A stretch of 64,000 bases of DNA from Candidatus Binatota bacterium (GTDB lineage: Bacteria > Desulfobacterota > Binatia > UBA1149 > CAITLU01): positions 1,268-65,267 of the forward strand of contig JAJRWY010000131.1 in assembly GCA_024276575.1 (NCBI GenBank), in the 5' to 3' direction. Made by a program: the position numbers and the translations under genes. The notes under the pieces were generated by a model that was not told the origin of the DNA, searched no databases, and saw nothing but the letters and a program-made list of their open reading frames with translations. Positions within the stretch are counted from its first letter, which is position 1. Each line of letters starts with the position of its first letter. Below, piece after piece: positions 4,606 to 64,000 of this stretch.

Positions 4606-5675
4606 CCCGCTGCCCCGATCCAGGGGTAGAATCGCTCGAGTTGCCCGATCGCCCCCGCCCGGTCGGCTGCGGTCAAAGACCCGGGCCACTCGATCTCGAT
4701 TCGGTAGTTTTCGCGAAAGCGTCGCAAGCGCTTTTCCAATTCGGCTTGGCGTTGGCGGCGCGACCAAGCGTAAGTGACTTCGGATCGGACTTGTTCCAGA
4801 GACGGCGCTTGCGGCAGAGTCTTTTCGTATATCCACAGCAGGTGAAAGCCGTAGGCAGATTCCACAGGGTCGCTCCACTGACGGGTTTCCAGAGACCACA
4901 GGCGGCGGGTGAATCCCGGCCCGAAATACTTGGCGATTTCGGCTCGAGATCCTGTCATCCGTGCTGGGCCGAAGCGCCAGGGATCACCGGGTCCGGCCGT
5001 CCACGGCACGTATTTGCCCTCGAGTTTGCTTGCGAGTTGCTCCGCGTCCGTTCGTGCGGCGCTACCTCGCTGGTCCTTGCTGAAGAAAATCTGGGTGAAG
5101 TCAATGGTTGCCGGCAACGCGAAACGGGAAGCGGATTCGCCGAGAAAACTCAGCAGCTCGTCTCGAGACGGAGAGCGGCGGTCGGCCGCTTGGTAGGCGA
5201 GCCTTTTCATAGTTTCGATCATGCGACGGCGTACCACGGGGTCGCTGGACGGCATGTCCAGGTCCAGAGCGCTTGCTAGCAAGCTTTGGACTTCCACTGA
5301 GCTGTCCGAACCCTCGTGGTCGGAGACGAAGCGCATGTTATTGATCAGCCGCCGCTCGCTTACCGCATCGTCGAGATAGAGCCGTCTTTTCAAGGCTTCC
5401 CTGAGCAGAATTTCATCGTCGAGTTCACGAGCGAGAATACGGCCGAACTCGGCGCCGCCGGGCAAGTGGCCCGCGGCGCGCAGATTATCGCGCAGGATCG
5501 ACGCCGCCCGGGCAGCGTCGATCTTGATGACGGGCGAGGGGCCTCCCCCGAAAATCGGACCGTCGAGCGTAGCGAGCCCGTTGCGAATGAGTAGCGCGAT
5601 CGCGCCGAGTGCGAAGAAGCGCAGTACGGGCGAGTGGCGCAAGAACAGCCATTTCTTTCGATCGATAGTTTCCAT
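4602..5675 (-). CDS. parvulin-type peptidyl-prolyl isomerase (PpiC/SurA-like)
   Basis: The C-terminal segment (AYGFHLLWIYEKTLPQAPSLEQVRSEV) resembles a PpiC-type PPIase domain. There is an N-terminal TM/signal segment after METIDRKKW. The track's N-terminal extension (to 5789) translates repeat copy A, so the start was trimmed. Confidence 0.5.
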   Translation of the reverse strand: METIDRKKWLFLRHSPVLRFFALGAIALLIRNGLATLDGPIFGGGPSPVIKIDAARAASILRDNLRAAGHLPGGAEFGRILARELDDEILLREALKRRLYLDDAVSERRLINNMRFVSDHEGSDSSVEVQSLLASALDLDMPSSDPVVRRRMIETMKRLAYQAADRRSPSRDELLSFLGESASRFALPATIDFTQIFFSKDQRGSAARTDAEQLASKLEGKYVPWTAGPGDPWRFGPARMTGSRAEIAKYFGPGFTRRLWSLETRQWSDPVESAYGFHLLWIYEKTLPQAPSLEQVRSEVTYAWSRRQRQAELEKRLRRFRENYRIEIEWPGSLTAADRAGAIGQLERFYPWIGAAG

Positions 5676-12201: not shown

Positions 12202-14516
12202 GCCGGCGGCCGCCGAGGGCCGGTAACGATCAAGAGAGCGGGCAAGACGAAGAGATCGCATAAAAGAGCCGTGAGCATCGACAGGCCGGCCAGGAACGAG
12301 AACTGAACGGTTGGTTGAAAGCTGCCTAAACAGCCGACCCAGAAACCCGAAGCCAGTACCAGCGAAGATACTACCAGCGCGGCTCCGATACGTGTGGTTG
12401 TCGCTTCGATCGCGGCGGACTCGCCGCCGCCGCGCTCGCGCAGGAAATTCATGAGGTAGTGGACAGTGTCGTCCACCGCGATGCCGATTACCACGGACGC
12501 GATCATCACCGTGCCACTACTCAACTCGACGCCCGCATAACCCATCATCCCAGCCGTCCATAGCACGGGCAACAGGTTGGGCACTACCGCGACGAACATC
12601 AAGCGGCGCGATCGAAACAGAACGCCGATCGTGCCGAATGCCAGAGCAAAGGCCAGCGCGAAAGATTTTATCTGCGTCGCGACAAGGCGGTTGGAGTCGC
12701 GTGCCACTTGATAGAAAGATCCCGTTGCGATGAGCTTGTAGGTGTTCCCCAACGTAGCGCGGGCAGACGAACGTACACGGCGAACGATTCGGGCCGCTTG
12801 TGCCGTACCGGCGACATGGACCGAGACGCGTAAGCGCGCAGTAACGTGATCGGGGGAAAGTAAACGGCGAAGCATTTCGACCTCGTCGCTTGACTCGAGG
12901 ATCTCGAGATAGGCGGCGAGAGAGTCGTCGTCTGCCGGCAGGGCGAGTGTAGTGGCTCCGCTTTCGGCCCGGTGCAACTGTTTGAGCAATGGCAGCAGGC
13001 TCCACACCCCGGTGATGGCGGGATCACCATGCAGGGACTTGGCAAACTCATCGAGTGTGATGAAGTCGGCAGCGTTCAACGGGGCATGGTCGCGTCGTGC
13101 GACGGTCAGTTCCAGATTGTTAGGCCCGGTGAGACTGCGATCCACGAATAAAGTATCGACTCTCAAACGGCTGTCGTTGCGCAAGAAGCGGATAAGGTCG
13201 GTGTTGTTGCGAATCTGTGGAACTCCTGCCGCCGAGATTATGGCGAGTAGAGCTGCGATCTTCAGAATGTCTCGCGGCCGGTTTCGGCAGATCCGAGCCA
13301 CGCCACGCAACATGGGCTCGAGCAACCGACCCAGGGGGGCTTGTGAGCCGGGCACCGCAGGGGATGGCGGAGTAAGAAAACTCAGAGCGGCCGGCGTAAG
13401 GGTGATTCCCACGAGGAAGGAGAGCATCACCCCGAAGGCCGCAAATGTACCAAAATAGCGGATTGCCGGGATATCGCTCAACGCCAAGGAGCCGAATCCG
13501 AAGGCGGTGGTGAGTGCGGCTACGAAGCAAGGCGCCCGGAGTTTTACGACGATCTGCGCGAGCCGTCGTAGAGGATCGCGTGTCGTGGAGTGAATCCAAG
13601 CGTAATAGATATGAACGCTGGTACTGATCGAAAGTACGGTGACCGCCGGGGCAAGCAGCGAGGTGATCGGATTGAGTTTGAGCCCGGCCAGGCTGTAGCA
13701 TCCGAGAGTAGCGGCTAGGCTGACCACGGTGACCAGTAGCGGCAGGAATACTCCTGAAAAGCGGCCGAACGAAAGCGCCAGCACCAATGCGATCACTACC
13801 AACGATACCGGCAACAACAGTAACTCATCTCGCCGGACTTGCACGGCGACATCGTGTTTCTGCAACGCTATACCCGTGAGGTGCAGCTCGGTTTCCGCGC
13901 TTTCGGACTCCGCGACTATGCCGCGCAAAGCCGTGATAAGGCCGTTTGGGGACGCTACGCTTTGCGAGTCCGGTTGAATCAGAATCGCTGCCGTCGAACG
14001 GTCCGCCGAAATCAGCAGCCCGGTCAGATGAGGATTGCGGTCTAGTGCCTCTTCGATGCTGTGCCTGAAGCTTTCCGGCGAAGAAGCATACGCTGGTTTC
14101 TGCGGTGTCCCATCGATGGGCGTAAGAGGGACGCTTTCGGCGCCGCTAGGGCCACTTATTATCTGGCTGGCGTTGGCTAGGCTGTATACCCGTTCGACCG
14201 AGCCCAGCGCTGCGATTCGCGAGCTGATGGACGCCAGGGTTCGCAAACCTTGGGGAGACAGTAAGTCCTCTCGAGTCACGGTCAGCAGGAACTCCTCGTC
14301 ATCCCCGAAGACCTGCTTGAAGTGTGGGTATATGCGTAGTTGTTGGCGGCTACGAGCGTTCAGCGCCTCGCTGCCGTGATCTATCTCGAGATCTCGCAGT
14401 TGTAGCGCGCAGAAGACCGTGAATAGGGCTATCGCGAGCAGATATAGGTAGCGCCAACGTAGGAACGCTAGGGATTCATTTCGTAAGCCCCTGAAAGAGC
14501 GTGGACTTGGTGCCAT
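12198..14516 (-). CDS. MMPL/RND-superfamily exporter (HpnN-like)
   Basis: 772 aa with two 6-TM bundles around large periplasmic loops, typical of SSD/MMPL transporters. Its start overlaps the acyl-CoA dehydrogenase end, so the true start may be an internal alternative codon. Confidence 0.65.
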   Translation of the reverse strand: MAPSPRSFRGLRNESLAFLRWRYLYLLAIALFTVFCALQLRDLEIDHGSEALNARSRQQLRIYPHFKQVFGDDEEFLLTVTREDLLSPQGLRTLASISSRIAALGSVERVYSLANASQIISGPSGAESVPLTPIDGTPQKPAYASSPESFRHSIEEALDRNPHLTGLLISADRSTAAILIQPDSQSVASPNGLITALRGIVAESESAETELHLTGIALQKHDVAVQVRRDELLLLPVSLVVIALVLALSFGRFSGVFLPLLVTVVSLAATLGCYSLAGLKLNPITSLLAPAVTVLSISTSVHIYYAWIHSTTRDPLRRLAQIVVKLRAPCFVAALTTAFGFGSLALSDIPAIRYFGTFAAFGVMLSFLVGITLTPAALSFLTPPSPAVPGSQAPLGRLLEPMLRGVARICRNRPRDILKIAALLAIISAAGVPQIRNNTDLIRFLRNDSRLRVDTLFVDRSLTGPNNLELTVARRDHAPLNAADFITLDEFAKSLHGDPAITGVWSLLPLLKQLHRAESGATTLALPADDDSLAAYLEILESSDEVEMLRRLLSPDHVTARLRVSVHVAGTAQAARIVRRVRSSARATLGNTYKLIATGSFYQVARDSNRLVATQIKSFALAFALAFGTIGVLFRSRRLMFVAVVPNLLPVLWTAGMMGYAGVELSSGTVMIASVVIGIAVDDTVHYLMNFLRERGGGESAAIEATTTRIGAALVVSSLVLASGFWVGCLGSFQPTVQFSFLAGLSMLTALLCDLFVLPALLIVTGPRRPPA

Positions 14517-16162
14517 ACTTTTTGGTAGCGCTCGGGGTCGACGGCCGGTTTCTTGATCATACGCATGCAGCAGTCCATTTGAGTCTCGGAGGTGCTGGCT
14601 TTGCCGTAGAGTGTCAGCGCGTGTTTGGAGACGTCACGGATCATGAAGTCGAAGATTTGATCGACCAGCGCATCTTCGATGCCGTAGATTCGCGCATTTT
14701 CCAGTATCAACTGCCCGTAGACCACACAGACGAAGATCTCGCCGGCAGCCATGAGCAGATCGACGTCTTTGCGCTGCTGTTCGTCTGGCGGCGCGGTCAT
14801 CAGCATTTCCTTGAATACTTCGATTTGCTCCTTGAACAGTGCGACGTTGGGGAGGTCGAATTCGTCGAATATCGGGGCGGGGTCATGGAAACGGATCTTA
14901 CCCAGTCCCCGTGTGGGCGCTTGCCGGAACAAGTAGGAGTCGTCCGAGGGATCGTCACGGCGCTCGACCAAGGGGTACTCGGCACTGTTGAAGAAATAGT
15001 TCGGCATGAACTTCAAGATCAGCGCGATATTGACGTGGACGGTACCTTCCAGTTTCGGAAGAGCACGGATATCGCGTGCCGCCGCTTCGAAGTAGGTGTC
15101 TTCTTCGAAGCCCTTGGCGGCGATGGCATCCCACATACTGTTGATCACATCCTCTCCCTGAGTGGTCACTTTCATTTTGACCACCGGGTTGTAGAGCAGG
15201 TAACGCCGGTCGTCGTCCGAAGCGCTGCGCATGTAGTCCGCTGCGCGCAAAGCTACCAGTTTCATCGCGACCAGCCGTGTGTAGGCGTCAACGAACATCT
15301 GCTGCACGTGGGAAAAGTCGGTGACGTACATGCCGTAAAGGCGGCGGTTGGCCGCGTGAGTGATCGCTTCATACAGAGCGTGGGTGCAGATTCCTATAGA
15401 TGCCCAGCCGAGGTTGAATTTGCCGATGTTGACCGTGTTCAACGCGGCATTCCAGGCGTCGTCTCCACGGTGGAGAATATCCGTTTCTTTTACCGGGTAG
15501 TCGTGTAGCGCGAAGTGGGCAACGAAATTCTGGCTGTTACATACGTTCTTCACGACCTCGAAGCATTCGTGCTGCGAGTCGGCAACAAAGAACACGTAGT
15601 CTCCACTGCCGGCCATTTTGCCGAATACCGAAACCATGCGTGCCTTGTTGGCGTTCCCGATGTAGTACTTCTCGCCGTTCGCGCTAAAGCCGCCGTCCGG
15701 GTTCGGGCTCAGTGTCATTGCGGTGGAGTAGACGTCGGCGCCATGATCTTTCTCCGACAAGCCGAAGGCGAAGATCTCTCCCTGTCGTAGTAGCTCGGCT
15801 GCCCGTTCTTTCTGCTCCTCGTTGCTGCTCATCCACACCGGTCCCAGGCCAAGGACCGAGACCTGCCATGTGTACCAGTACTGGAGCCCGTAAAAGCCGA
15901 GGATTTCCGCGAATTCGCAGATCCTCCAGGTGTCCCAGCGCGCGTCGGGCTTGCCGTATCCGGAGGGAGTCAAGATGTCGGCGAACAGTGACTCGGCTCC
16001 GGCGTGTTCGAGGAAATCTCCGTACCACTCGCGCTCGTGATCGGCATCCTTTAGTTTCCTCTTCCCTCGCTCTTCGAAAAAGTCGATGGTGCGGAGCATC
16101 AGCTCGCGCGAGCGCTGGTCGGGATAAGGACGCACATGTTGCTTGGGATTGAGAAGAATCAT
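14468..16162 (-). CDS. acyl-CoA dehydrogenase family protein
   Basis: About 560-aa ACAD fold (EKDHGADVYSTAM, GEKYYIGNANKA). Confidence 0.7.
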   Translation of the reverse strand: MILLNPKQHVRPYPDQRSRELMLRTIDFFEERGKRKLKDADHEREWYGDFLEHAGAESLFADILTPSGYGKPDARWDTWRICEFAEILGFYGLQYWYTWQVSVLGLGPVWMSSNEEQKERAAELLRQGEIFAFGLSEKDHGADVYSTAMTLSPNPDGGFSANGEKYYIGNANKARMVSVFGKMAGSGDYVFFVADSQHECFEVVKNVCNSQNFVAHFALHDYPVKETDILHRGDDAWNAALNTVNIGKFNLGWASIGICTHALYEAITHAANRRLYGMYVTDFSHVQQMFVDAYTRLVAMKLVALRAADYMRSASDDDRRYLLYNPVVKMKVTTQGEDVINSMWDAIAAKGFEEDTYFEAAARDIRALPKLEGTVHVNIALILKFMPNYFFNSAEYPLVERRDDPSDDSYLFRQAPTRGLGKIRFHDPAPIFDEFDLPNVALFKEQIEVFKEMLMTAPPDEQQRKDVDLLMAAGEIFVCVVYGQLILENARIYGIEDALVDQIFDFMIRDVSKHALTLYGKASTSETQMDCCMRMIKKPAVDPERYQKVWHQVHALSGAYEMNP

Positions 16163-18196: not shown

Positions 18197-18503
18197 TGTT
18201 TAGAGAAAAAACACGATACTGTCAAGAAGAGTTCTCAGAAACGTAAAACAGACCATAAAACCACAAGGTTAGCTGAACCTACATACTGAAGGTAAAATGC
18301 GATAATTTGCGAATGCCGCATTGCGTTACCGATGTTCAGGGCTTATTGTTTGTTAGCGGGGATCGTTACGGTGAGAAGCATTCTCCTGGGACGAAGGCTG
18401 GCTCCCCTGTACGGGCTTGCCGCGCGGTGGGCAATCAGGCTAGGAAGGCGCAACTCGTAAGGAGCGAAGCCGGGCCTCGCGGTGGTGGAGGGGAGAAGAG
18501 ATT

Positions 18504-29968: not shown

Positions 29969-30045
<77 letters not shown>

Positions 30046-30082
30046 CTTTCCGGCGGTTCCGATTCTCGAGGTTCCGCCGAGC

Positions 30083-30159
30083 GCGCCAGTAGCTCAGTTG
30101 GATAGAGCATCGGCCTTCTAAGCCGGTGGTCGCAGGTTCGAGTCCTGCCTGGCGCGCCA
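30083..30159 (+). tRNA. tRNA-Arg (anticodon TCT)
   Basis: Acceptor GCGCCAG/CTGGCGC, D-arm AGCTCAGTTGGATAGAGC, anticodon loop CTTCTAA, T-loop GGTTCGAGTCC, and an encoded CCA. Confidence 0.85.
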
Positions 30160-50058: not shown

Positions 50059-50595
50059 CTACTTCCGAGCCGTCCGCGTTTCGTCTTCACGGACCTTCAG
50101 TCCCCACGGGCTTTTGTACATGCGGCCCTCGCTCCATGCACGATAGAGATCCTCTTGTTCCAGCAACCAGCCCGTCTGGCCGGCGGTAAGGTCGAAGTAC
50201 GCGACCGCAGTAAATGGGACCGTGGAAATGGTCCCGCCGAACGTATTGGTCCCGTAGACATGTGATTTGCCCGGATGTCCCAGCACGTAAACCTTATGAC
50301 CTTCAAGGATAACGGTTCCCCCACGGACCGGATACTCGACGAGAACGGTGGATCCTTCGGCGCGGCTCCCAAAGCCTTCGACATAGAGTTGGAACGTTGC
50401 GCCGGTGTCCAAATCCTCACGGATCCAGAGTACCTCTCCGGAAAAAGCGTACAGCTCATCCGCATGCGCTTCGGGATTCTTTTGAATCCTCACTAGATCT
50501 TCGAAGCCATGGAGTGGATAGGACCTGACGGCCTTCTGCATTACAGCGCAACCAGAGAGAAGAGTGAGCGTGAGAAATAGAGCTATACGTTTCAT
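50059..50595 (-). CDS. lipoprotein (weak Slp-like), candidate superinfection-exclusion factor
   Basis: Lipobox LTLLSGC; ATGA-coupled to the upstream WYL gene. Confidence 0.5.
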   Translation of the reverse strand: MKRIALFLTLTLLSGCAVMQKAVRSYPLHGFEDLVRIQKNPEAHADELYAFSGEVLWIREDLDTGATFQLYVEGFGSRAEGSTVLVEYPVRGGTVILEGHKVYVLGHPGKSHVYGTNTFGGTISTVPFTAVAYFDLTAGQTGWLLEQEDLYRAWSEGRMYKSPWGLKVREDETRTARK

Positions 50596-51098
50596 GCTGT
50601 GTCCTCCATCCACCGTTTGTAGGCCCGGCGTCCTCGGCCGCTGCGCTCCGTAAGCGAGACCTTCCTCATCCGTGCGAGTTTGAAGGTTCGCTCCTCATTA
50701 CGAAGTCGGCAGAAGGCGACAAGGTAATCGTTGCCTTCAAGCTCCAAGGGGGTAACCGATCTCGTGTTCCATTCTCCCGTGCCGCCGGTGTAGTACTCCA
50801 TGGTTATGTCTTGTTGAGACTCCATCGCTTCCTCGATGATCTTCCGGTTGGGCGCTACAACATCCTGATCGTCGTAGCGATTGCGGACGTCATCTGCGTC
50901 GTCGTAGAGCTGTGGCAATTCTTCGGTTTCGACTTCTGTGGGTGCTTCTCCAGAGCGTTGGCTGCGTCGGGTCCGCCACAAGTAAAAGAATATCCCCAGT
51001 GCAACGAGCGACGCTACAGGGTTGAGTCCCGGTTGGGCGCTCGTACTCAAAGCGACTATTGCGATGAGGAAAAGAAGCACTCTCCAAAGAAATCGCAT
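50592..51098 (-). CDS. two-TM membrane-anchored WYL-domain protein
   Basis: TM1 and TM2 in the first 45 aa. A C-terminal segment (ITMEYYTGGTGEWNTRSVTPLELEGNDYLVAFCRLRNEERTFKLARMRKV) matches the WYL consensus. Confidence 0.5.
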   Translation of the reverse strand: MRFLWRVLLFLIAIVALSTSAQPGLNPVASLVALGIFFYLWRTRRSQRSGEAPTEVETEELPQLYDDADDVRNRYDDQDVVAPNRKIIEEAMESQQDITMEYYTGGTGEWNTRSVTPLELEGNDYLVAFCRLRNEERTFKLARMRKVSLTERSGRGRRAYKRWMEDTA

Positions 51099-51116
51099 GT
51101 GTTCCCCCCTCCGAAC

Positions 51117-51758
51117 TTATTCCGCCGAGCCTAGAATCGCGGCTGCGGCGCCATAGATAGTGAGTGTGCGTCTACAGTCTCCCAAGGCTCGGTGCTCTCG
51201 GTCCAGGGAAAGTCCTCTAGCTTGGGCCAAATCAGAAAGGCGGTAGCTATCCCGGCCGGGCCAAGCCCTGCGAGACATTTTCAGGGCGCAGGATACGGGA
51301 TTATGAAGTTCCCGGCCCGGCTGGCACTGACTTACCGCTTCTCTCAGAAACCCCATATCGAACGGTGCATTGAAAGAGACCAAGGGGAGGTCTCCAATGA
51401 AGTCGAGAAAAGCGCCAAGTGCGTCTTCAAGCGAGTCTCCGTCGCGGTCCACCATCCGTTGGGTGATGCCGGTGAGTTTGGTGATCTTCTTCGGAATCTT
51501 CGCCTTGGGCCGGATCAGGGCCTCGAAGCTCTGATGGTGAACAGAGTCACGGGAGACGCGGATCGCGCCGATTTCGATGATCTCATTCTGCGTTGGGCTC
51601 AGGCCTGTAGTTTCAAGATCGAACACCACGAACTGTTCCGGGAGGGCGGAGAGATCGGTAGGGGGCGGCGACGCCCTCTTACGCGAGGCTCGTCTGGCCA
51701 AAGCAACGGTTGCGATGACTAGAAAGGCGATTCCGAATAGCGTTGCCGTGACGGTCAT
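51117..51758 (-). CDS. membrane-anchored DEDDh 3'-5' exonuclease (DnaQ-like)
   Basis: N-terminal TM helix followed by a basic stretch. Exo I is FVVFDLETTG, Exo II is SFNAPFDMGFL, and Exo III is EHRALGDC. Confidence 0.65.
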   Translation of the reverse strand: MTVTATLFGIAFLVIATVALARRASRKRASPPPTDLSALPEQFVVFDLETTGLSPTQNEIIEIGAIRVSRDSVHHQSFEALIRPKAKIPKKITKLTGITQRMVDRDGDSLEDALGAFLDFIGDLPLVSFNAPFDMGFLREAVSQCQPGRELHNPVSCALKMSRRAWPGRDSYRLSDLAQARGLSLDREHRALGDCRRTLTIYGAAAAILGSAE

Positions 51759-51955
51759 CGCGCGTTCCTCGGATTCTTCAGTTCCAACCCTAAATGCTTG
51801 GCTAGCACCGAGGCATTGGAAAGCTTCATGTCGGTTCCGGACAGGAACCTAGAAATCGTGGATTGAGGTATTCCGGTCTCGCCGGCGAGAGTCCGCGCGG
51901 ACTTCCCGGAAGTCTTGATGGCGGCCCGGAGTGTGTCTGCCAGGTCTTTCGGCAT
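51755..51955 (-). CDS. XRE-family HTH regulator
   Basis: SARTLAGETGIPQSTISRFLSG is a Cro/C1-type HTH; 4-nt overlap with the exonuclease gene. Confidence 0.65.
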   Translation of the reverse strand: MPKDLADTLRAAIKTSGKSARTLAGETGIPQSTISRFLSGTDMKLSNASVLAKHLGLELKNPRNAR

Positions 51956-51972
51956 GCCTCCCCCTACGGGCT

Positions 51973-51992
51973 ATGATGCATACATGCATATA
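51973..51992 (-). promoter_or_regulatory. ATGCAT-ACATGCAT repeat upstream of the XRE gene, candidate operator/promoter
   Basis: Two ATGCAT hexamers and a TATAT box lie 20-40 nt upstream of the XRE start. Confidence 0.3.
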
Positions 51993-52015
51993 GGGTGTCA
52001 AGGGGCGGTAGACGT

Positions 52016-52282
52016 CTATCTTATTAGCTTTAGTCGTCGCAAGTCGGTCTCGGTCCAGCCGATGTCTGTTAGTAGGCTGGCCAACAAGCTCCAGCCGTAG
52101 GTCTTTGTCTTGCTTGGGTGATAGTGAATTACTACTCGTTTCGACGCGCTAGAGGTCTTGACGAACGCCCGGGTCGCGCCTCGGGTGACGTCTTCTTGCC
52201 ACCCATCTTTTTTGAGCGCTCGGATCAGGTCTTTCGGCGTAAGCTTTTTTAGCTGATCCCGTATGTTCCGGGAGAATGGCAT
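52016..52282 (-). CDS. HicA-like (YcfA fold) toxin homolog
   Basis: DLIRALKKDGW ... RVVIHYHPSKTKTYGWSLLASLLTDIGW fits HicA, but the canonical GSH catalytic His is replaced (RGAT). Confidence 0.45.
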   Translation of the reverse strand: MPFSRNIRDQLKKLTPKDLIRALKKDGWQEDVTRGATRAFVKTSSASKRVVIHYHPSKTKTYGWSLLASLLTDIGWTETDLRRLKLIR

Positions 52283-52572
52283 CCGACCGTTATGTGGTGA
52301 AGCAAGGCTCCTTCCGGTATTTCAGGAATCTCGCGCTGTTCAAGCGTAAGGTTGGGACCTACGGGGAGTGGGTCTCCGTGCTGGGCGAGCGAGTCTAGGT
52401 AGACCTTAATTGCCTCAGTGGCGTTCTGGAGCGCGTCGTTGATGGTGTCACCGGGCACATGCAGCCCTTTCAAACCCGGACAGAAAGCGTGATACGTACC
52501 ATCCTCTTCCTTCTCGACGACAACCGTCACACTCAAGCGCAACTCCACCCGTCGACGACCCAAAAGAGTCAT
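52249..52572 (-). CDS. HicB-like antitoxin (UPF0150 domain)
   Basis: VELRLSVTVVVEKEEDGTYHAFCPGLKGLHVPGDTINDALQNATEAIKVYLD matches the HicB N-domain consensus. Confidence 0.55.
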   Translation of the reverse strand: MTLLGRRRVELRLSVTVVVEKEEDGTYHAFCPGLKGLHVPGDTINDALQNATEAIKVYLDSLAQHGDPLPVGPNLTLEQREIPEIPEGALLHHITVGCHSPGTYGIS

Positions 52573-52686
52573 GAGACGTTGAAACATCCGGACCTCCCTG
52601 ATTGCGGCTGGACAACTCCCGCTAGGTCATTTATGGGGCTAATCTATCACCAGAGTCAAGATAAGTAGCAACTTCTTGCAGGCAAG

Positions 52687-52777: not shown

Positions 52778-55288
52778 GTGCTGGAAACCCCAATGGCGAC
52801 GATTCCACGAACAGACGCTTTTCCCTCCCTTGTGGGGGGTATCCCCAGCGACGGGGCCGCCTATCTCCTCGGTGACCACATAGCCGTCGATAAGGCCTCG
52901 GATGCCTACGGAGAGGCCAACCGCTACGGTTCCAGGGACGCCGGCGTCATCTGGACCGATGCCTCGAAGGCCGCTGCGGCTTGGCTGGCCTATCGCGGGA
53001 TCGGCGCCGAGGAGAACGAGATCATCACGGGCAAGTTCTTCTGGCGGCATGTGAGCGGTGCCACCCGGCAGTCTGTCTCGCTTGGTCTCATGGCGCGCTT
53101 GGGCAATATCTCCTCGTCGTCGGCCGGGCCCCCTGAGCACTGGTATAAGGCAGACGCTTACGTCTTCGAGGCGGAGATCGACCCGGACGCCGAGACGGCC
53201 GACTTCTATCTGAGGCGCGTGGACCAAGGGGTGAAGACCACGCTGACGAGCTCGCTGGCGGTGTCCTGGCCGGAGTTTCGCAACTATGAGCTCGAACTCA
53301 GGTGCTTGTCGCTGTCCGATGGGAAGGTGGTGCTGTTCGCCAAGTTGGACGGGGACAACTTGTTATCTGCCGTCGACGCAGTAGGCAGCGCGCTTACGGG
53401 CGCTGGCCACTACGGTTTTCTGACGTCCAGCGGCAAGGCCGCGGCTGGTGAAACCAGGGCCTCAATCCGGAATTTCAAGGCGGCTGCGCTCTCCGACGGC
53501 TCGGTCTGGCTCGACGACGATTTCGACCGTCCCAACAGGGTAGGGGCGGATGACTACTACGTCCGGTCGTTTTGGAGCCACACGGAGGCTGTAACGACCG
53601 CCGGTGGGCAGATTTCGTATGGATCCGAGTCTGGAATCGAGCGCGTCTCGATGTACCAGGCCGTGCCTACGGACGAGGACTACACCGTTCGGGCCGACCT
53701 CACCTACCCGAACACCGCTGATGCGCACTGGTGCGGCGTAGTCGCGCGCGGCGGCAAGGGGTCGTCGGGCGGAGATCTCGATTCCTTCACCGGGTATCTC
53801 GCCCGGCTACGGATCGACACCTCGACCAACAACCTCGAACTCAAGAAGGTTATCAACGGGGCGGTTATCTGGACGCAGCAGGCGGACGTGTCCGGGCTGT
53901 CGGCGAGTACGCCGATCGAGCTCAAGCTCGATGTGAGCGGAAGCGGAGACGTGACGCTGAAGGTCTACGTCGACACGGTTCTCAAGCTGACAGTGACCGA
54001 CCAAGACGCCAACCGGCTACTGCAAAAGGGCCAGTCCGGGATTTACCTGAATCGTGCGTCAGGCGGATCCGGTGCGCTTGTCGCCGATGATTTCGTTCTC
54101 GGGGATCCGCCGGCGTCGGCGAGCTCGTTTACACGAGTCGCGGTGGCGGATGAGGACGTCGGTGGGATCACTCGATACTTTGTCCAGGGGGAAGATCTGA
54201 CGGGGCAAATAGACGGCGCCACGGCCACCTTCACACTGGCTCAGACACCGGCGAGCGCGGCGGAGACGGCAGTGTTTCGAAACGGGATCCGTATGGAGCG
54301 TGTGGCATCATCTCCCGGCGAGAATCAGTACACGGTCAACACGGGCGCGGCGAGTATTACGATCGGCGGAACTGTGCCGGCAAGTGGCGAGACGCTAGTG
54401 ATCGACTACCCGCTTGTCGGCAATACGGACCTGGTCATCGGTGAAGAGCCGTCCGGGACGAAAAACGGCCTGAACTACATCTTTACGTTGGCCAGCACGC
54501 CGAAGCGTTTGGAAGCGATCCGCGTTTATCTGGCCGGGGTCCGCTTGAGCTATGTGGCTGCGGGAAATCCCGGCATAGGCCAGTTTGCTGTTCCGAACCC
54601 CACCACGATCGTCGTGGGCCTGGCGCCGACTTCCACAACGGCGTTGGTAGCTGACTACGTGTCCGGCGGAAGTCTGGTCATTGAGACTCCGACCTACGGA
54701 GAGGTGCCCACGGGTGCGATCGACGGCTCGAACCGGGTATTCGAGCTCGTTGCAGCTCCGAATTCGCCGGCCGAGTGCGCGCCGGCGGTAAACGGGGTGC
54801 ATCTGAAGTACTCGGCCGCGAGCCCCGGGGCCATGGAGTTCTCTTTGGTGGATAAGACGATCACGCTGGGAGAGGCACCGCCTGCGGGTGCGGAGGTCCG
54901 GGTCGACTATGTTCGCTCTGATCTCTTCGAGCTGCTCTTCAACTACGTGCCGGATTATCCGTTCCGGGCGATCGACCGCTTCCAGACCATCAAGTACGGG
55001 TTTGAGTACGGCTACGAGCAGAGCTGGCCGGTCCGGGCTCAGAGCCGGCGGCGCTTCGAGTGCGTATTTGGCAATCGAGACAAAGCGGAGCGAGACGCCA
55101 TCATGAGCTTCATCGAGGCCCGGGTGGGCTCTCACCAGCAGTTTTCGTGGGTTCCTCCGGACGAGACCGATCCGATCACGGTGCATCTCAAGGGAGTCTC
55201 GGCCAGGGCCTCAAAGACCAACCCTGACAACTACTCGATTCACCTGGTGCTCGAGGAACTCATTACCTTCACGGCGGCCGCAGCATGA
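52778..55288 (+). CDS. minor tail protein M-like domain fused to a large N-terminal lectin/Ig-like extension
   Basis: The C-terminal ~110 aa show a gpM pattern (FSWVPPDE ... EELI). Upstream are three ~75-aa Ig-like repeats and two beta-sandwich-like modules. Confidence 0.55.
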   Translation: MLETPMATIPRTDAFPSLVGGIPSDGAAYLLGDHIAVDKASDAYGEANRYGSRDAGVIWTDASKAAAAWLAYRGIGAEENEIITGKFFWRHVSGATRQSVSLGLMARLGNISSSSAGPPEHWYKADAYVFEAEIDPDAETADFYLRRVDQGVKTTLTSSLAVSWPEFRNYELELRCLSLSDGKVVLFAKLDGDNLLSAVDAVGSALTGAGHYGFLTSSGKAAAGETRASIRNFKAAALSDGSVWLDDDFDRPNRVGADDYYVRSFWSHTEAVTTAGGQISYGSESGIERVSMYQAVPTDEDYTVRADLTYPNTADAHWCGVVARGGKGSSGGDLDSFTGYLARLRIDTSTNNLELKKVINGAVIWTQQADVSGLSASTPIELKLDVSGSGDVTLKVYVDTVLKLTVTDQDANRLLQKGQSGIYLNRASGGSGALVADDFVLGDPPASASSFTRVAVADEDVGGITRYFVQGEDLTGQIDGATATFTLAQTPASAAETAVFRNGIRMERVASSPGENQYTVNTGAASITIGGTVPASGETLVIDYPLVGNTDLVIGEEPSGTKNGLNYIFTLASTPKRLEAIRVYLAGVRLSYVAAGNPGIGQFAVPNPTTIVVGLAPTSTTALVADYVSGGSLVIETPTYGEVPTGAIDGSNRVFELVAAPNSPAECAPAVNGVHLKYSAASPGAMEFSLVDKTITLGEAPPAGAEVRVDYVRSDLFELLFNYVPDYPFRAIDRFQTIKYGFEYGYEQSWPVRAQSRRRFECVFGNRDKAERDAIMSFIEARVGSHQQFSWVPPDETDPITVHLKGVSARASKTNPDNYSIHLVLEELITFTAAAA

Positions 55289-59300: not shown

Positions 59301-60073
59301 TCTTGGTGAAGGCCGTGGACACCCAGGGGCGGGAGTCCTACACGGCGGCTTCGGTCTGGGTCGATATGGATCTGACCTACGGGGCGCCATCATTTAGCTA
59401 CAGCGAGCGCGACTCTGGCTGGGTGGGCTCGAAGGTAAACACCGTGAAGGATTCTCAGGGCCGGTTAGCCAAGACGGGAGCGTTCGCGGGCCTGTACGCC
59501 AGCGTACTTCACGATCTTGGCCAGGAGCGGGATTGGCAGCTTTCGGTGAGCGGAGGTGCTACTCGCAACGCGTCTGCGTTTACCTCGCAGGCCAGCCGCT
59601 TTGTTATCGGGGCGGTAACCGGAGGGCCGTTCACGGCCGGAGAGACGGTGACCGGCGGGACGAGTGGCGCGACGGCTACGGTGTTGGTGGCAGCTTCGGA
59701 CGGTGACTACGCGATCTATGTAAAGCCCGTCAGCGGAACATTCCAGGCCAACGAAACTGTCACCGGCGGGACCTCTTCAGCGAGTTGCACCATCAAGACG
59801 GCAGCGTTGGCGGTGTTGGGTGACGACCTCGAGGCGGGTCGCTGGGACGCCACCGGGCGGGGAGATTTCGATAATCTCTCGTATTCGCTCGTTCTTACGG
59901 CGTTAAACGACGACCAGGAGACGGTTGGGTCCTACCAGGGCTTTTCTCAGGGCGTTGTGCGCGCTCGCTACCTACGAGTGGATCTGTCGCTCGATGAGAG
60001 CGGCGACTCCGCGCTGGGGACCCCGGTGATCCCGGATCTGCGCCTGGCGGCGTGGACGCCGGCAACAAACTAA
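56297..60073 (+). CDS. tail tip/host specificity protein J with gpI-like N-terminal fusion
   Basis: Residues ~60-165 resemble gpI (PIPVIYGEHPVGGNILS). The remainder is gpJ-like (SQGRIEG; NPAWIALDVLTNKRYSVG ... YCDSLVDDGQGGTEP). Confidence 0.8.
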   Translation: MITVKTCRNPFLEGAGREKQADHRPGQPIAAYLPESWSLEDTYCIWNGKGVYKEALQAIEPRDGDELIFVSTFGDPVSALYVLANALYVAAPYLATIAISTAVSYGVSLLIGMPEPPDLEDDGSVFSPPRNRRRRGAPIPVIYGEHPVGGNILSLYTTLNERGDTFLNVLLAVSQGRIEGIGSRTDAFDAVAHDDPDLQDIKLNGNPLSSYSGVDVSFRPGEIVQSVIPGFNQTHDLHAIGSELDQPMDANGKGIAGPGPWFSYSTTKAVDAAVINISHSRGLYYQNGQGKIRSTPVFYEVRYRLSDAGGGSPGPWNYVVYGMPAIPGVQFTAQGSQYTTSLDPNDARAIMVEAKRTAPFASAFRLTFPTRDSYDIDVRRRNRNTANTADSDKHRHEPTKRNNLIQLGSIDEILDEALSYPGVALLALRNIDVKQTNGGLPTIVAKVKGVRVPVWDGVDADNPVYAYEWSNNPAWIALDVLTNKRYSVGNYLSATDPDLESLKDWADYCDSLVDDGQGGTEPLGRWDGVIFQEKEAWETLRQICLTARCAPILSGRKIKFKAEKARPRTQQFGMGNIVTDSWEHQYLGAEEDSPNQVIVQYLNADKDYTEDAAIFELDEVKDNSEPLRSKTVPLPGVTRPGQAMREAKLIALLGRRTVEAAGFRCGLDALAAEAGDRIVLAEDYTEWGMTGRVAAGSSSTTVVLDRSVTLDTGKTYEFEIQFDTGDRETRTVTSPAGTYPAGTAISVATAWSRLPQKHDLFLLGEQGQDKLDWIIYRIGRRADLTHAIKCVNYDESIYTDSLVIGQVIEANQNASVPQSTLIPPDVTGLTLRADPQVARDGTEIHALRASWAPASAAGARRYEVFYRQQGDTAWISAGETLDDELLLSSDISPGDAYEVAVVGVAEAGDKGHPESSPQSSATYDPVAERPVRPVNLSYTRVENTLVLAWDDPGNDADGQPLNRNLAFYRVKRGWDWRTAAFVGEVKGTQLETSNWTPGGELFLVKAVDTQGRESYTAASVWVDMDLTYGAPSFSYSERDSGWVGSKVNTVKDSQGRLAKTGAFAGLYASVLHDLGQERDWQLSVSGGATRNASAFTSQASRFVIGAVTGGPFTAGETVTGGTSGATATVLVAASDGDYAIYVKPVSGTFQANETVTGGTSSASCTIKTAALAVLGDDLEAGRWDATGRGDFDNLSYSLVLTALNDDQETVGSYQGFSQGVVRARYLRVDLSLDESGDSALGTPVIPDLRLAAWTPATN

Positions 60074-60112
60074 GTACTACGTTGTAGTACCTACTTTCCC
60101 CCGATTCCCGTC
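60071..60112. promoter_or_regulatory. conserved palindromic motif copy 3 (TAAGTACTACGTTGTAGTACCTACTTTCCCCCGATTCCCGTC)
   Basis: Begins at the J stop codon, 30 bp upstream of the next gene. Confidence 0.55.
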
Positions 60113-60143: not shown

Positions 60144-61733
60144 ATGATGAGTCGACAGTTTGCAGCCCTGGTTCTTGGCTTGAGTCTTGTAATCCCCTTT
60201 ACGGCGCCTGGTCAGGTGCTGCCGCAACAAGGCGGTACCGGGTATCCGAATTCCGGGACCGATGATTCGGTCCTTCTCGGTGAGGGCGGCGCGTTTCGCG
60301 AAGCCCAAATCCCGGATTGTCCAGATTCTGCGGGTCAGCATCTGAACTACACTCAGTCCACGAATCTCTTTGCCTGTGGTGTATCCGGCGCGGTCGGTAC
60401 CGATACGATTGGCACTGACGAGCTTGACGATGGGGCCGACGTCCCGGTGGCTGGCGAGTGCCTGAAAGTGCCTGCCGACACGTCGAAAATCGAGTATTCG
60501 AGCTGCGGCGCCGCCGGCCACGGCGATGGTGCGAACTGCGCCGCCGGCAACTATCCCCTTGGAGTCGATGCGGCCGGTGCGGTGCAGTCTTGTACGGCGG
60601 ACGACGACCAACCCGACGATGACTCCGAGGTTCCTGACGCCATCACTATCGACAATTCGAGCAGCGGATGGATCATCTTGGAGCAGGGGATTACGCCCGG
60701 AAACACCACCGAGGGTCGGATCCAATGGGACACCGCTACGAGTCAGTTGGCGGTGGGCAACGGTTCGTCTGTTTCTCGATTCACGCCGAGCGGCTCGGCC
60801 ATCGCCGGCAAACTGTGCGCATACGACGGAACGGCTGGGGAGATCGACTGCATTACCTCGCCTGGTATCGAGATCGAGAATCAGAACATCTCCGTGGCGA
60901 CCAACGTTGAGCGGCTCGATTTCGGGACGGATTTCTCGTGCGCACCCGATGGTAGCGGGGAGGTCGACTGCTCGCTCAACTCCACCGTGTACAAGCAGGG
61001 GGACACCATACAGAAGGCCGATTTGCCTACTGAGGCCATGCGCACAGATGCCTCTAGGACCATGAGCGCTGGCGTGACTTGGACCGGCAACTCGACGGGG
61101 TTTGCTGGCACCTGGGACATCACCGGCACGGTGAACGCGCAAAACGGTAACCTTGCGATTCCACAGCGCAGCTCATGCGCGAGTGAATCCAACGTCGGCG
61201 GGGTGTGTATCAGCACGACCAACGACGTGCCGTCGATCAAGACAACCTCCAGCGGAATTCAAGACATCCTGACGGCGCGAGATCACCGGCGGTGTCAGTT
61301 GGTGACCTGGGCGTCGTCACAGAACAGCTTTTGCACGGCGAATACGCGGCGACCGCTAAATGGCCTGGGCTCCTACTGTGTGGACAACATCGCGCCACGG
61401 ATGTCGACGAAGGTGACGATAGAAGACGCCAAGTTTGTCCTCTACTACGATTTGGCCACCGGTGAGTCTCAGACGTTCAACTTTCAGTCCGGGACTGGAT
61501 CGATAGCGGCCGCGAGTGATGGCGGCGCCGCGACCGCACCAACTTGGGTAACGGAGGGCAGTTGCACTGTTACAGGTAGTTCTGGGCTTTCGGATCTCGA
61601 GTGTACGATCACGGGGCCGCTGACCTGGGAAGCCGGGGAATTTGGCCGGATCAAGGTCACGACAGGGGGGACTCCTCCGCAAACCTGGGCGTCGGCCAGC
61701 TACGTGATTTGTGTCGAAGAGGTGACGTTGTGA
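60144..61733 (+). CDS. secreted Cys-containing protein (tail-fibre-position gene with Sec signal peptide)
   Basis: MMSRQFAALVLGLSLVIPFTAPGQ signal peptide; 529 aa. Confidence 0.45.
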   Translation: MMSRQFAALVLGLSLVIPFTAPGQVLPQQGGTGYPNSGTDDSVLLGEGGAFREAQIPDCPDSAGQHLNYTQSTNLFACGVSGAVGTDTIGTDELDDGADVPVAGECLKVPADTSKIEYSSCGAAGHGDGANCAAGNYPLGVDAAGAVQSCTADDDQPDDDSEVPDAITIDNSSSGWIILEQGITPGNTTEGRIQWDTATSQLAVGNGSSVSRFTPSGSAIAGKLCAYDGTAGEIDCITSPGIEIENQNISVATNVERLDFGTDFSCAPDGSGEVDCSLNSTVYKQGDTIQKADLPTEAMRTDASRTMSAGVTWTGNSTGFAGTWDITGTVNAQNGNLAIPQRSSCASESNVGGVCISTTNDVPSIKTTSSGIQDILTARDHRRCQLVTWASSQNSFCTANTRRPLNGLGSYCVDNIAPRMSTKVTIEDAKFVLYYDLATGESQTFNFQSGTGSIAAASDGGAATAPTWVTEGSCTVTGSSGLSDLECTITGPLTWEAGEFGRIKVTTGGTPPQTWASASYVICVEEVTL

Positions 61734-63964
61734 AGCGTGCCCTCTTGTGCACGCTGCTCATATTGCTTCCGATTGAGGCCACCGCAGCGCGCGTATTCCT
61801 GACGGGGTTCGAGTATTGCGACTACAACGCCGGCGACGAGCTCTTCATCCTGGAGGCGGACTCGTGGAGCAATCCGATAATCACGGCCACGAGCCCGACG
61901 CCTAGAGGAAACTTCTGCGACTACGTCAGCCACGATGATCGAGGCAAAGCCTGCTCGAGCAACGCGGACTGCAACGCAGGGCAAGGGACCTGCGTGAGCG
62001 AGCCCAACAACGGCTGTTCCCTCGAGGTCAGCCCGACGACCTCGGTCGAGTGGGCGCGTGTGGGCACGGACATAATCTCGGCCACGGATACGCTCTACAC
62101 CCACCTGTTGGTGAACGTGACGACGGTGGGAGACAGCGGCGATCCGCTCAAGCTGCTCACGTACAAGCAGGGCTCCAATGTAGGGATGTTTCTGCGGCTG
62201 GAGCGCGCGAGCTCCACGGAATACCAGGCGCGATTGTACTTCGAGGATGATGGGAAGGAGTGCGCCGGCGGGACCAACGATGGTACGGAGGCAACGTCCG
62301 ATGCTGACTGCACGGCAGAAACGCCGGGGGAGTCGACAGCCTCGGATTCGTCATTCGCTTCAACCCCGGTTTTGAGAACCGGTCAGTGGTACGAGATCAC
62401 CATTGGCCAGGACAACACGGCAGGCGCCGGCGGTGATGTGCGCGGTGAGCTGTGGGAATCCGGGTTCAATAGGGGGGCGCAGACGCGGCCGCAAGGGGCA
62501 TGCACTGGTGATGGCTTCGCCTGCTCGAGCAATGCGGACTGCCCGTCTCGTTGTTCAGATTGGGTGATCTCCGGCGATCCCGAAGGTGACGACACCTGCG
62601 CGACCAATGCTGACTGTTCTGTTACCTGTGACTCCCAGACTTGCTCCACGGCCGACGTTGGCCAGGTCACCGACATTCTGATCGGCCAAGAGGCGGCGAC
62701 GACGTCCGTGTGGCAGGTAAACATCGATGATCTGATCATTGACGACGCTGTGGCGGTAAAGACTGCGCGGATCGCGCGGATGACGCCCGACGGTGAAGTG
62801 GAAGCAAATCTGGCGCGCACCGGATGCTCGAGCTCACGGTGGGAGTGTATTGACGACTTGGCAACGGGGAAATCCGGCCTGGACTACTCCACGACTTATC
62901 TGTCGAGGAACGGTAACCCGAACAATGACATCTTCACGCTGAGCGACATCACGCTGGCCGCCGGCGAGTCAATTTCGACCTCGGCCGGCGTCGCCTTCTC
63001 TGGCCTATACAACGACCACGGTGATGCTGCCTCCGGCAAATATCACCGTCTTTGCGCGCACGACGGCACGAATCGTTCTTGTTGGGGCGGAATCTGCACT
63101 ACCAACGCGGATTGCAATAACGCTCAGGAGTGCAATTCCGGGCTGTGTTACAGCGACATCGCGTATCACAGCACGGGCGGCGTTTTTCTGCCGGATGCCT
63201 ACGCACTGATCACGGATCCCCCGGGGGCAGATACTCAGTGGTGCCGGGCCCCATCATGCAGTGGCTTTGACCTGAACAGCCTCGACGTCGAGGTCGGTAC
63301 GGCCTCCAATGCTTTTCACTTAACCGCCGTAGTGGCCGAGGCCGAGGTTTCTCTGCAATCCCCGACGCTGCCGGGGGTAGCCGTCGACGTGAATGGCGAC
63401 GGCTATGAGACGCTATGCGTGGCCGGGGACTCGACCGCGAACCAGACTGAGTTCCATAATCTGCTGACGGCGTCGCTTGAAGACTTCGACTCGATAATTG
63501 TGTGTACGCGCGGCTCGACCACCATTGGCGACATCGAGCAGAACATCGAGACGATCATGAACGGCCGCTCTTGCTCGAGCAACGCGGATTGCTCAGGTCA
63601 GACACCAACATGCGGATCCGGCCTGTGTAGCCCCAACTACATGCAGTGCCGCACCCTTATCGGCGGTAACCACAAATGCGACTACTTGCTGCTCGTGTCT
63701 GGTGTAAACACGCTTGTTGCGGAAATGCCGCCCCCGCGTATGCACTGCAATGGCGGAACGGATCAAGGGGATCTTTGTAGCACCAACGCCGATTGCACGG
63801 GTGGTATGTGTGAGAGCTATGAGTTCGGGTATTGCCGTGGTGGGACGGATCACGGAGCACCATGCTACTGCGGTCAAAACGGGCTGTGGGTCAACGATAC
63901 CTCCGGCTATCCCGACAGCGCGACCCGGTACTGCATCAACAACAAGGCGAGCCATTGGCTTGCT
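61730..63964 (+). CDS. secreted LamG/ConA-like protein with multiple C[ST][ST]NADC Cys-rich repeats (partial)
   Basis: GTG start overlapping the previous stop. Signal peptide VKRALLCTLLILLPIEATAA. At least six CxxNADC ... C ... C motifs. The ORF remains open to the window end. Confidence 0.45.
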
Positions 63965-64000
63965 ACCAACGTATCGTCCACCTGCCGGACCTGCAGTGAC

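Follow-up and report, generated by a model that had tools for sequence, protein, structure and literature searches.

The stretch of DNA considered here, 64,000 nucleotides of contig JAJRWY010000131.1 from a Candidatus Binatota bacterium (called the window, at its full length), contains a lambda-like prophage whose tail module, by the gene annotation of the window, ends with the central tail fibre gene gpJ and is followed by two genes, ORF1 and ORF2. We propose, with a probability of roughly 0.5, that these two genes form a conserved two-gene phage module for exported, disulfide-stapled glycan recognition and de-O-acetylation. The main functional clue is a predicted SGNH esterase domain in the C-terminal part of ORF2, which was missed when the locus was first described from its letters and open reading frames (the sequence-only reading). 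This domain is accompanied by signal-peptide-like N-termini on both proteins, by a high cysteine content, and by the recurrence of the pair in structural modules of other phages.

The two genes and their predicted products

ORF2 starts with a GTG codon at 61730 that lies within the letters GTGA and therefore overlaps the ORF1 stop codon; a GAGG stands 7 nt upstream. As the sequence-only reading had described, this overlapping frame is still open at the window end, after 757 codons. An identical full-length copy of 1008 amino acids (aa) is present in a public protein collection (P0001). The features of ORF2 are as follows.

61730-64000, plus strand: ORF2, first 757 of 1008 aa, open at the window end; stop expected near 64756
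61730-61789, plus strand: predicted Sec signal peptide, MKRALLCTLLILLPIEATAA; the mature N-terminus opens the conserved FxTGFE strand
61790-62755, plus strand: concanavalin A (ConA)/LamG-like jelly-roll domain 1, aa ~21-342, holding GQWYEITIGQD...GELWESG and Cys-rich loop inserts; boundaries approximate
62765-63364, plus strand: second beta-sandwich, aa ~346-545, all-beta and of high confidence in the model; boundaries approximate
63377-64000, plus strand: N-terminal part of the predicted SGNH/GDSL esterase domain, aa ~550-757 of 550-1008, with blocks I-III within the window
63425-63433, plus strand: SGNH block I, GDS with Ser568, in VAGDSTANQ
63512-63514, plus strand: SGNH block II, Gly595
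63707-63709, plus strand: SGNH block III, Asn660, in SGVNT
Past the window end: SGNH block V, D945-x-x-H948 (DHIH), seen in full-length P0001

Structure prediction had been suggested for both proteins; the AlphaFold2 (AF2) model of ORF2, built on a 47-sequence alignment of its family, is confident (predicted local distance difference test score, pLDDT, 79.8; predicted template modelling score, pTM, 0.84), whereas that of ORF1 is too poor for use. The ORF2 model suggests the order signal peptide (aa 1-20), ConA/LamG-like domain (~21-342), beta-sandwich (~346-545) and SGNH esterase (~550-1008), with boundaries that are approximate, being taken from the secondary structure of the model. The N-terminal part has the jelly-roll beta-sandwich fold of ConA-like lectins and glucanases, and the top Foldseek matches of ORF2 in the PDB are ConA-like alginate lyases, TtX122 and the lectin-like domain of clostridial neurotoxins. 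Matches of 320-530 aa in BFVD gave alignments of 440-560 columns, which on our reading probably span both N-terminal beta-sandwiches, the aligned query residues not being reported by the fold searches. The LamG-like core of the sequence-only reading thus survives as a fold, and Laminin_G_3 (PF13385) is matched by 5 of the 47 relatives (best 2.9e-16; the relative P0033 carries it in a precomputed table), but Pfam gives no Laminin_G_3 match on ORF2 itself.

The C-terminal part of ORF2 has the three-layer alpha/beta/alpha, flavodoxin-like fold of SGNH enzymes, and its top structural matches are polysaccharide acetyl-esterases, not peptidoglycan enzymes. Conservation of the catalytic blocks across the 47-sequence alignment is high: in block I, Ser568 is kept in 47/47, Asp567 in 43/47 and Gly566 in 42/47; in blocks II and III, Gly595 in 42/47, Gly658 in 36/47 and Asn660 in 46/47; and in block V, Asp945 in 45/47 and His948 in 47/47. 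Ser568 and His948 are among the few invariant columns of the alignment. Lipase_GDSL_2 (PF13472) is matched by nine of the 47 relatives (best 3.9e-6). On ORF2 itself neither SGNH model of Pfam (PF13472, PF00657) is matched, at E<=1 for the window part or at E<=0.01 for the full length, because the core is split by long Cys-rich inserts. Although it stays below these Pfam thresholds, ORF2 is, by its modelled fold and its complete set of four catalytic blocks, a member of the SGNH and ConA-like superfamilies; its esterase function is a prediction.

From their sequences, both proteins look exported. ORF1 begins with MMSR, then FAALVLGLSLVIPF, then TAPG, and ORF2 with MKR, then ALLCTLLILLPI, then EATAA; each thus offers a basic n-region, a hydrophobic stretch of at least 10 residues and a small-residue c-region, the layout of a type I signal peptide. 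The calls come from a heuristic of hydropathy, charge and small residues applied across the relatives, and it is positive in 41/47 of the ORF2 family, 25/28 of the ORF1 family and all eight complete partner proteins found upstream of ORF2-like genes, the misses being mostly truncated starts or sequences that lack only the K/R. In other words, the signal-peptide-like starts that had been noticed on both frames are, by this heuristic, a property of the families. The AF2 models place a helix at residues 2-11 of ORF2, with the first beta-strand at 21-25, and a helix at residues 3-14 of ORF1 (in its pLDDT 48 model). A lipoprotein signal was considered and rejected, as neither signal peptide, read from the sequence, has a lipobox before a Cys.

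Mature ORF2 contains 66 Cys and ORF1 18, both even numbers. The Cys share is 5.9-6.6% in ORF2 and 3.4% in ORF1, compared with 0-0.64% in the tape measure protein, portal, M-like protein and J of the same prophage. Those of ORF1 are mostly paired, 10-19 residues apart. In ORF2 the motif CxxNADC stands at aa 75, 265, 290, 456, 615 and 683, that is, six times within the window, in agreement with the earlier count of at least six, and nine times in full-length ORF2; when the protein was shuffled 20,000 times, 2% of the shuffles had one or more and the maximum was 2. The repetition is far beyond chance.

61952-62017, plus strand: Cys module 1, CSSNADCNAGQGTCVSEPNNGC, aa 75-96
62522-62644, plus strand: Cys modules 2 and 3, CSSNADCPSRC...CATNADCSVTCDSQTC, aa 265-305, an insert in ConA-like domain 1; pLDDT low to medium
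63095-63148, plus strand: Cys module 4, CTTNADCNNAQECNSGLC, aa 456-473, an insert in beta-sandwich 2; pLDDT <50 at 459-475
63572-63628, plus strand: Cys module 5, CSSNADCSGQTPTCGSGLC, aa 615-633, between SGNH blocks II and III; pLDDT <50
63776-63835, plus strand: Cys module 6, CSTNADCTGGMCESYEFGYC, aa 683-702, an insert after SGNH block III

The modules occupy loops of all three ORF2 domains, at places where confidence in the model is low. ORF2-family proteins have between 0 and 12 of them on a retained core, and we regard the modules as accessory inserts. Extraction with a strict pattern gave 108 modules, with the consensus G-x-x-C-[SAT]-[TS]-N-[AST]-D-C-x(3-6)-C-x(4-8)-C. With a profile of 48 modules (24 positions), the best PDB match is the DPY module of Drosophila Dumpy (1OIG, E 0.014), followed by squash-type knottins (E 0.1-1), and module 5 gives a sub-threshold match of 22 residues to the Pfam knottin family Toxin_23. 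The spacing C-x2-N-x-D-C-x(3-6)-C-x(4-8)-C does resemble CVLNSDCPSNQACVNQKC of DPY; however, the scores are marginal, the organisms and context are unrelated, and connectivity is unreadable at the low AF2 confidence, so that we take the resemblance to DPY and knottins as a pattern lead only, not as membership. A toxin identity was rejected, ORF2 having no toxin domain and the Toxin_23 match being a 22-residue, sub-threshold Cys pattern. The module stands outside the curated families, none in Pfam or NCBIfam matching above threshold or accounting for it. The suggested likeness to myxobacterial-type repeats (TIGR02232) fell away: ORF2 has no NCBIfam match at E<=1, and the 47 relatives have no related Pfam match.

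60144-61733, plus strand: ORF1, 529 aa, from ATG at 60144 to TGA at 61733 by ORF call; predicted exported, fibre-like partner
60144-60212, plus strand: predicted Sec signal peptide, MMSRQFAALVLGLSLVIPFTAPG, with a maximum 10-residue hydropathy of 2.87 and a basic n-region
60516-60650, plus strand: copy of a ~45-aa disulfide-loop repeat, GHGDGANCAAGNYPLGVDAAGAVQSCTADDDQPDDDSEVPDAITI, the most conserved block of the ORF1 family
60972-61082, plus strand: motif SLNSTVYKQGDTIQKADLPTEAMRTDASRTMSAGVTW, common to partner proteins of other ORF2-like genes

ORF1 is P0003 of the public protein collection, from the same 75.8-kb NCBI contig as P0001. A word-indexed protein search found 27 relatives, all unnamed or hypothetical, and the family shares a signal-peptide-like start, the ~45-aa repeat and a C-terminal beta-rich domain. 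The repeat follows the pattern (A/G)NGANCxAGxYPLGVDxxGAxxSCTxDDDxPDSDxEVPD with a conserved Cys pair; it occurs once in ORF1 and up to about six times in relatives, which are metagenomic phage proteins, and it is previously undescribed. A tail-fibre label can be approached only through these relatives: one carries collagen repeats, a single family member, probably the same one, matches tail-fibre PHROGs, and another shows ~52% identity over 54 residues to annotated tail fibres of cultured myoviruses. On the strength of the repeats, the collagen-bearing relative and this weak tail-fibre similarity, we consider it reasonable, but weakly supported, to call ORF1 fibre-like from its sequence. ORF1 itself has no match in Pfam, NCBIfam or the PHROGs, neither ORF1 nor ORF2 has a tblastn match among 50,697 cultured phage records, and searches of PDB sequences with the profiles of both families returned no match.

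Recurrence of the pair and its prophage setting

An exhaustive HMMER search of 1.84 billion representatives recovered 57 relatives of ORF2 at E<=1e-3, almost all of them 800-1500 aa in length; 18 of the 57 reach E<=1e-30. A word-indexed search found one relative only, whether it was queried with ORF2 alone or with the profile of 47 sequences. A scan of metagenome contigs added nothing new to the families, and no ORF2 relative is present in 185,579 representative genomes. Both families are rare and were met only on phage-like contigs of uncultured phages. At nine of the nine ORF2-like loci examined, an upstream partner gene overlaps the start of the ORF2-like gene, and the eight complete partners all have signal-peptide-like N-termini and 15-29 Cys. 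A BLAST network ties seven of the eight to ORF1; the partner at locus L018 is not linked, and is counted on position, signal peptide and Cys count only. A hidden Markov model of the ORF1 family does not detect the divergent partners in L007, L009, L010, L018 and L020. The motif SLNSTVYKQGDTIQKADLPTEAMRTDASRTMSAGVTW of ORF1 is shared at 62% identity over 37 aa with the L001 partner, and is present in the L008 and L009 partners too.

In both the window and L008, the pair follows gpJ. In L010 it follows a 1602-aa gene in the J position and directly precedes a GH108 endolysin, with an integrase nearby; in L020 it stands among SU10-type adaptors and a pectate-lyase-fold protein (tailspike); in L009 it is found between T7-type portal and scaffold/capsid genes; and in L001 between the major capsid and connector genes. 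The pair thus belongs to structural modules of both siphoviruses and podoviruses (T7-like, SU10-like), co-oriented and tightly packed, with 4-70 nt or an overlap to the preceding structural gene (4-10 nt or an overlap in the relatives), which argues against an autonomous moron. An autonomous moron was rejected also for want of a promoter or terminator of its own in consensus scans, which are weak evidence, and for the tight gaps to late genes. The toxin-like moron of the sequence-only reading is accordingly hard to maintain, given the co-orientation with tail genes, the gene overlap, the lack of a promoter-like site in those scans, and the podovirus contigs.

Several of the related loci hold further genes of interest. 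In L007 (5248-11470), three consecutive signal-peptide genes encode an ORF1-like protein of 497 aa, a 440-aa protein and a 1145-aa Cys-rich SGNH protein; the 440-aa protein matches the N-terminal beta-sandwich part of the ORF2 family, making this a split version of ORF2, and the next gene, of 468 aa, carries YEAL/FEAL repeats. Two ORF1-like genes with signal-peptide-like starts occur without an ORF2-like neighbour: one in L004 (10001-11461), in the same slot as in L009, between portal and capsid on a T7-like contig, and one in L002 (10001-11971), the last large structural gene before a lysozyme. In L001, the contig of the P0002 pair, an 810-aa double glycosyltransferase is encoded inside the structural module (12377-14809), and a tape-measure-like gene of 3413 aa begins at 18313. 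A canonical 185-aa GDSL lipase gene lies near the ORF2-like gene of L019 on the opposite strand (4619-5176, minus strand).

Within the window, the setting of the pair is as follows.

1-29.9 kb: host genes, among them C13 peptidase, DUF3604, MMPL, acyl-CoA dehydrogenase, molybdate transporter and rhodanese
29969-30159: tRNA-Pro(TGG) and tRNA-Arg(TCT)
50059-52587, minus strand: island of five genes between the tape-measure and distal tail genes
52778-55288: distal tail protein, 836 aa
56297-60073, plus strand: gpJ/TipJ central tail fibre gene, 1258 aa, directly upstream of the pair (phrog_31 at 6e-129, NF040662, Phage-tail_3); given as context only
60071-60093, no strand assigned: inverted repeat, stem of 10 bp, immediately behind the gpJ stop, within the 70 nt that separate J from ORF1

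The two tRNA genes are the likely integration site, because they stand exactly at the junction of host genes (molybdate transporter, rhodanese) and prophage; an integrase was not found at this end of the prophage, and may lie past the window end, as the integrase near the pair in L010 would suggest. After the tRNAs the prophage encodes, in order, ParB, a gpA-type terminase, a lambda-type portal, an S49 protease, the tape measure, the distal tail protein, L, K (NlpC/P60) and J/TipJ. The slot after gpJ had been taken for the tail-fibre position, and rightly so, because the genes upstream are M-like, L, K (NlpC/P60) and J/TipJ.

In the C-terminal part of gpJ (~59618-59812, aa 1108-1172), two stretches are alike, GETVTGGTSGATATV and NETVTGGTSSASCTI, and the region matches PHROGs labelled tail fibre and head closure. 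The match of the distal tail protein to minor tail protein M/DUF2460 is confined to its last ~100 residues, its N-terminal extension of ~720 aa having no family match in Pfam, NCBIfam or the PHROGs. The island encodes an unknown 184-aa ORF, a WYL-domain protein, an RNase_T-family exonuclease, a HicA toxin and a HicB antitoxin, and looks like defence or toxin-antitoxin cargo within the tail module. The inverted repeat after gpJ is terminator-like on the minus strand only, by a terminator scan. Consensus scans, again weak evidence, found no sigma-70-like promoter and no convincing plus-strand terminator in the gap between J and ORF1.

Proposed mechanism and rival explanations

In the mechanism that we envisage, both genes would be transcribed with the late tail genes, translation of ORF2 being coupled to that of ORF1, and type I signal peptides would route both proteins via Sec to the periplasm of the Gram-negative host. 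Oxidation there would give ORF2 about 33 disulfides and ORF1 about 9. The two ConA/LamG-like domains of ORF2 would bind surface polysaccharide (lipopolysaccharide, capsule or exopolysaccharide, EPS), its SGNH domain (Ser568, Gly595, Asn660, Asp945-His948) would strip O-acetyl groups, and the CxxN(A/S/T)DC-x-C-x-C mini-modules would be variable loop decorations, locked by disulfides, that make the protein stiffer for extracellular life, with ORF1 acting as its fibre-like partner. Lysis would then free the pair as a receptor-binding and receptor-modifying device on host-surface glycan, an exported equivalent of the receptor-binding sets in which other phages combine a fibre with an SGNH esterase.

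Would such a pair work free or on the particle? By analogy with T5 Llp or Cor, the two exported proteins may work unattached to the particle, destroying receptors or blocking superinfection enzymatically. That it is instead a receptor-binding apparatus of the virion, exported, folded in the periplasm and docking onto finished tails after holin breach or in the lysate, seems to us rather unlikely. The genes do have the tail-module position of a receptor-binding protein, but we know of no extracytoplasmic maturation step of this kind described for tailed phages.

Among characterized proteins, the closest in function to the pair are the phage SGNH receptor-binding esterases and NanS-p. To our knowledge, known phage SGNH receptor-binding proteins are assembled into the virion in the cytoplasm and have neither signal peptides nor dense Cys modules. 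Such esterases are established and abundant in Klebsiella prophages, with confirmed esterase activity and with G7C gp63.1 as a worked example, and the paper on these prophage proteins never mentions a signal peptide (PMC13123978). Like G7C gp63.1/gp66 and the SGNH fibres of Klebsiella and Acinetobacter (pro)phages, the pair combines an SGNH domain with carbohydrate-binding beta-sandwiches, is encoded in the tail-fibre region beside a fibre-like partner gene, and by analogy would deacetylate surface polysaccharide without depolymerisation; unlike them, it shows no sequence similarity detectable by tblastn among the 50,697 phage records or in the PHROGs. The unconventional receptor-binding protein that the sequence-only reading offered as an alternative to secreted cargo is the one of its suggestions that fits best, given the predicted lectin-plus-SGNH-esterase architecture of ORF2 (PMC13123978). 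The SGNH esterase NanS-p of phi24B, long thought to be cargo, is a virion protein (bioRxiv 10.64898/2026.04.10.717836); NanS-p proteins of Stx phages (phi24B gp84/vb_24B_21, PDB 6yp6) have an N-terminal DUF1737 capsid-binding domain and no Cys modules, and ORF2 as a NanS-p was rejected, having no DUF1737 match in Pfam and a predicted signal peptide at its N-terminus.

Two further comparisons lie outside the virion. With periplasmic or secreted bacterial SGNH carbohydrate esterases that carry a carbohydrate-binding module or lectin (acetyl-xylan esterases such as 7ddy; Ape1; AlgX-type), ORF2 shares a signal peptide (predicted in ORF2), SGNH blocks and a beta-sandwich, but those proteins are cellular and 200-450 aa long, whereas ORF2 is phage-encoded, ~1000 aa long, split in its core by inserts and always paired with a fibre-like gene. 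Like lambda Lom, Cor of phi80/N15/HK022 and T5 Llp, the pair is exported (here by prediction) and encoded beside receptor-binding genes. Llp and Cor act on the receptor, protecting against superinfection or progeny loss. Lom, Cor and Llp, however, are small single proteins (60-200 aa), often lipoproteins, with their own expression signals and with no enzymatic domain or fibre partner.

Several points weigh against our proposal. Export and cleavage are predictions by heuristic. ORF2 itself falls below every Pfam, NCBIfam and PHROG threshold, the ORF1 monomer model is unusable at a pLDDT of 48, and the fibre-like label of ORF1 is weakly supported. The position of the pair varies with phage type. 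Virions assemble in the cytoplasm, so that no path is known by which an exported receptor-binding protein could reach a tailed-phage particle, and no virion-attachment domain was recognised in ORF1 or ORF2. The target of ORF2 may instead be peptidoglycan or an environmental polysaccharide, and the host is an uncultured metagenome-assembled genome, for which the host gene DUF3604 (63% identity to an unclassified metagenome-assembled genome, about 41% to those of Gammaproteobacteria) allows no more than a weak proteobacterial placement.

What else might the two genes be? As host-benefit cargo of the late operon, a secreted adhesin and a carbohydrate esterase would help the lysogen or survivors, for example in the use of acetylated polysaccharides or in surface adherence, and would be released by lysis like Shiga toxin with no role in infection. 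Export signals and a slot downstream of J fit this explanation, which we nevertheless judge distinctly unlikely: the two genes run in the direction of the structural genes, stand close to them and show no promoter-like site, the true cargo island of the prophage (50059-52587) lies on the opposite strand, podovirus contigs of virulent type (T7-like, SU10-like) also carry the pair, which occupies three different structural-module slots, and the families are confined to phage-like contigs, with none among the 185,579 representative genomes. NanS-p, an esterase formerly thought to be cargo, proved to be a capsid protein (bioRxiv 10.64898/2026.04.10.717836).

An ordinary side tail fibre (ORF1) and esterase tailspike (ORF2), both assembled in the cytoplasm, would draw on a different part of the evidence, namely the tail-fibre slot after J and before the lysis genes, the resemblance of the fibre-plus-SGNH pairing to G7C gp66/gp63.1 and to the receptor-binding proteins of Klebsiella prophages (PMC13123978), the disulfide networks of some virions such as phage Milano, and a tail-module protein of VpV262 among the BFVD structural neighbours. 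The N-termini might then be buried attachment helices or gene-start artefacts, and the Cys might oxidise after lysis. We give this little credence, in that the full n-h-c layout with AxA-like sites is kept across two families and across GC contents, the first strand of the fold starts directly after the predicted cleavage site, correct pairing of 66 Cys is unlikely in a reducing cytoplasm, and the VpV262 structural analogue (ORFO, from a Vibrio phage) has no signal peptide and almost no Cys; moreover, neither ORF1 nor ORF2 has a PHROG tail-fibre or attachment domain, or any match to known tail-fibre families in the PHROGs, Pfam or NCBIfam. Equally improbable, in our estimation, is a role in egress, in which ORF2, as an Ape1-like esterase of O-acetyl-peptidoglycan in the periplasm or as an esterase that loosens capsule or EPS, would open wall or matrix to the phage muramidase and to escaping virions, with ORF1 as scaffold or targeting partner. 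Known Ape enzymes are much simpler than a 1008-aa protein with two lectin domains, 66 Cys and a fibre-like partner, which would be an unparsimonious solution; lysis genes are not adjacent to the pair in L001, L009 and L020; and the top structural matches are to polysaccharide acetyl-esterases rather than peptidoglycan enzymes. Exported, disulfide-stapled glycan recognition and de-O-acetylation is the reading that we retain.

Implications

What is new here is a phage lectin-esterase with a fibre-like partner, both predicted to be exported and both cystine-rich, along with two undescribed protein families (57 and at least 27 clusters) and a new cysteine mini-module. Tailed-phage particles are assembled in the reducing cytoplasm, and we know of no receptor-binding protein among them with an export signal or a dense disulfide network; the combination of universal, if predicted, signal peptides with a position in structural modules would surprise phage specialists. 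If the proteins act free, they would represent a new class of phage-encoded receptor-modifying exo-enzyme, with possible roles in superinfection exclusion, in protection of progeny from debris and in loosening of the matrix. If they end on the particle, an assembly step outside the cytoplasm would be implied, and tailed phages could carry eukaryote-style, cystine-stabilised receptor-binding proteins.

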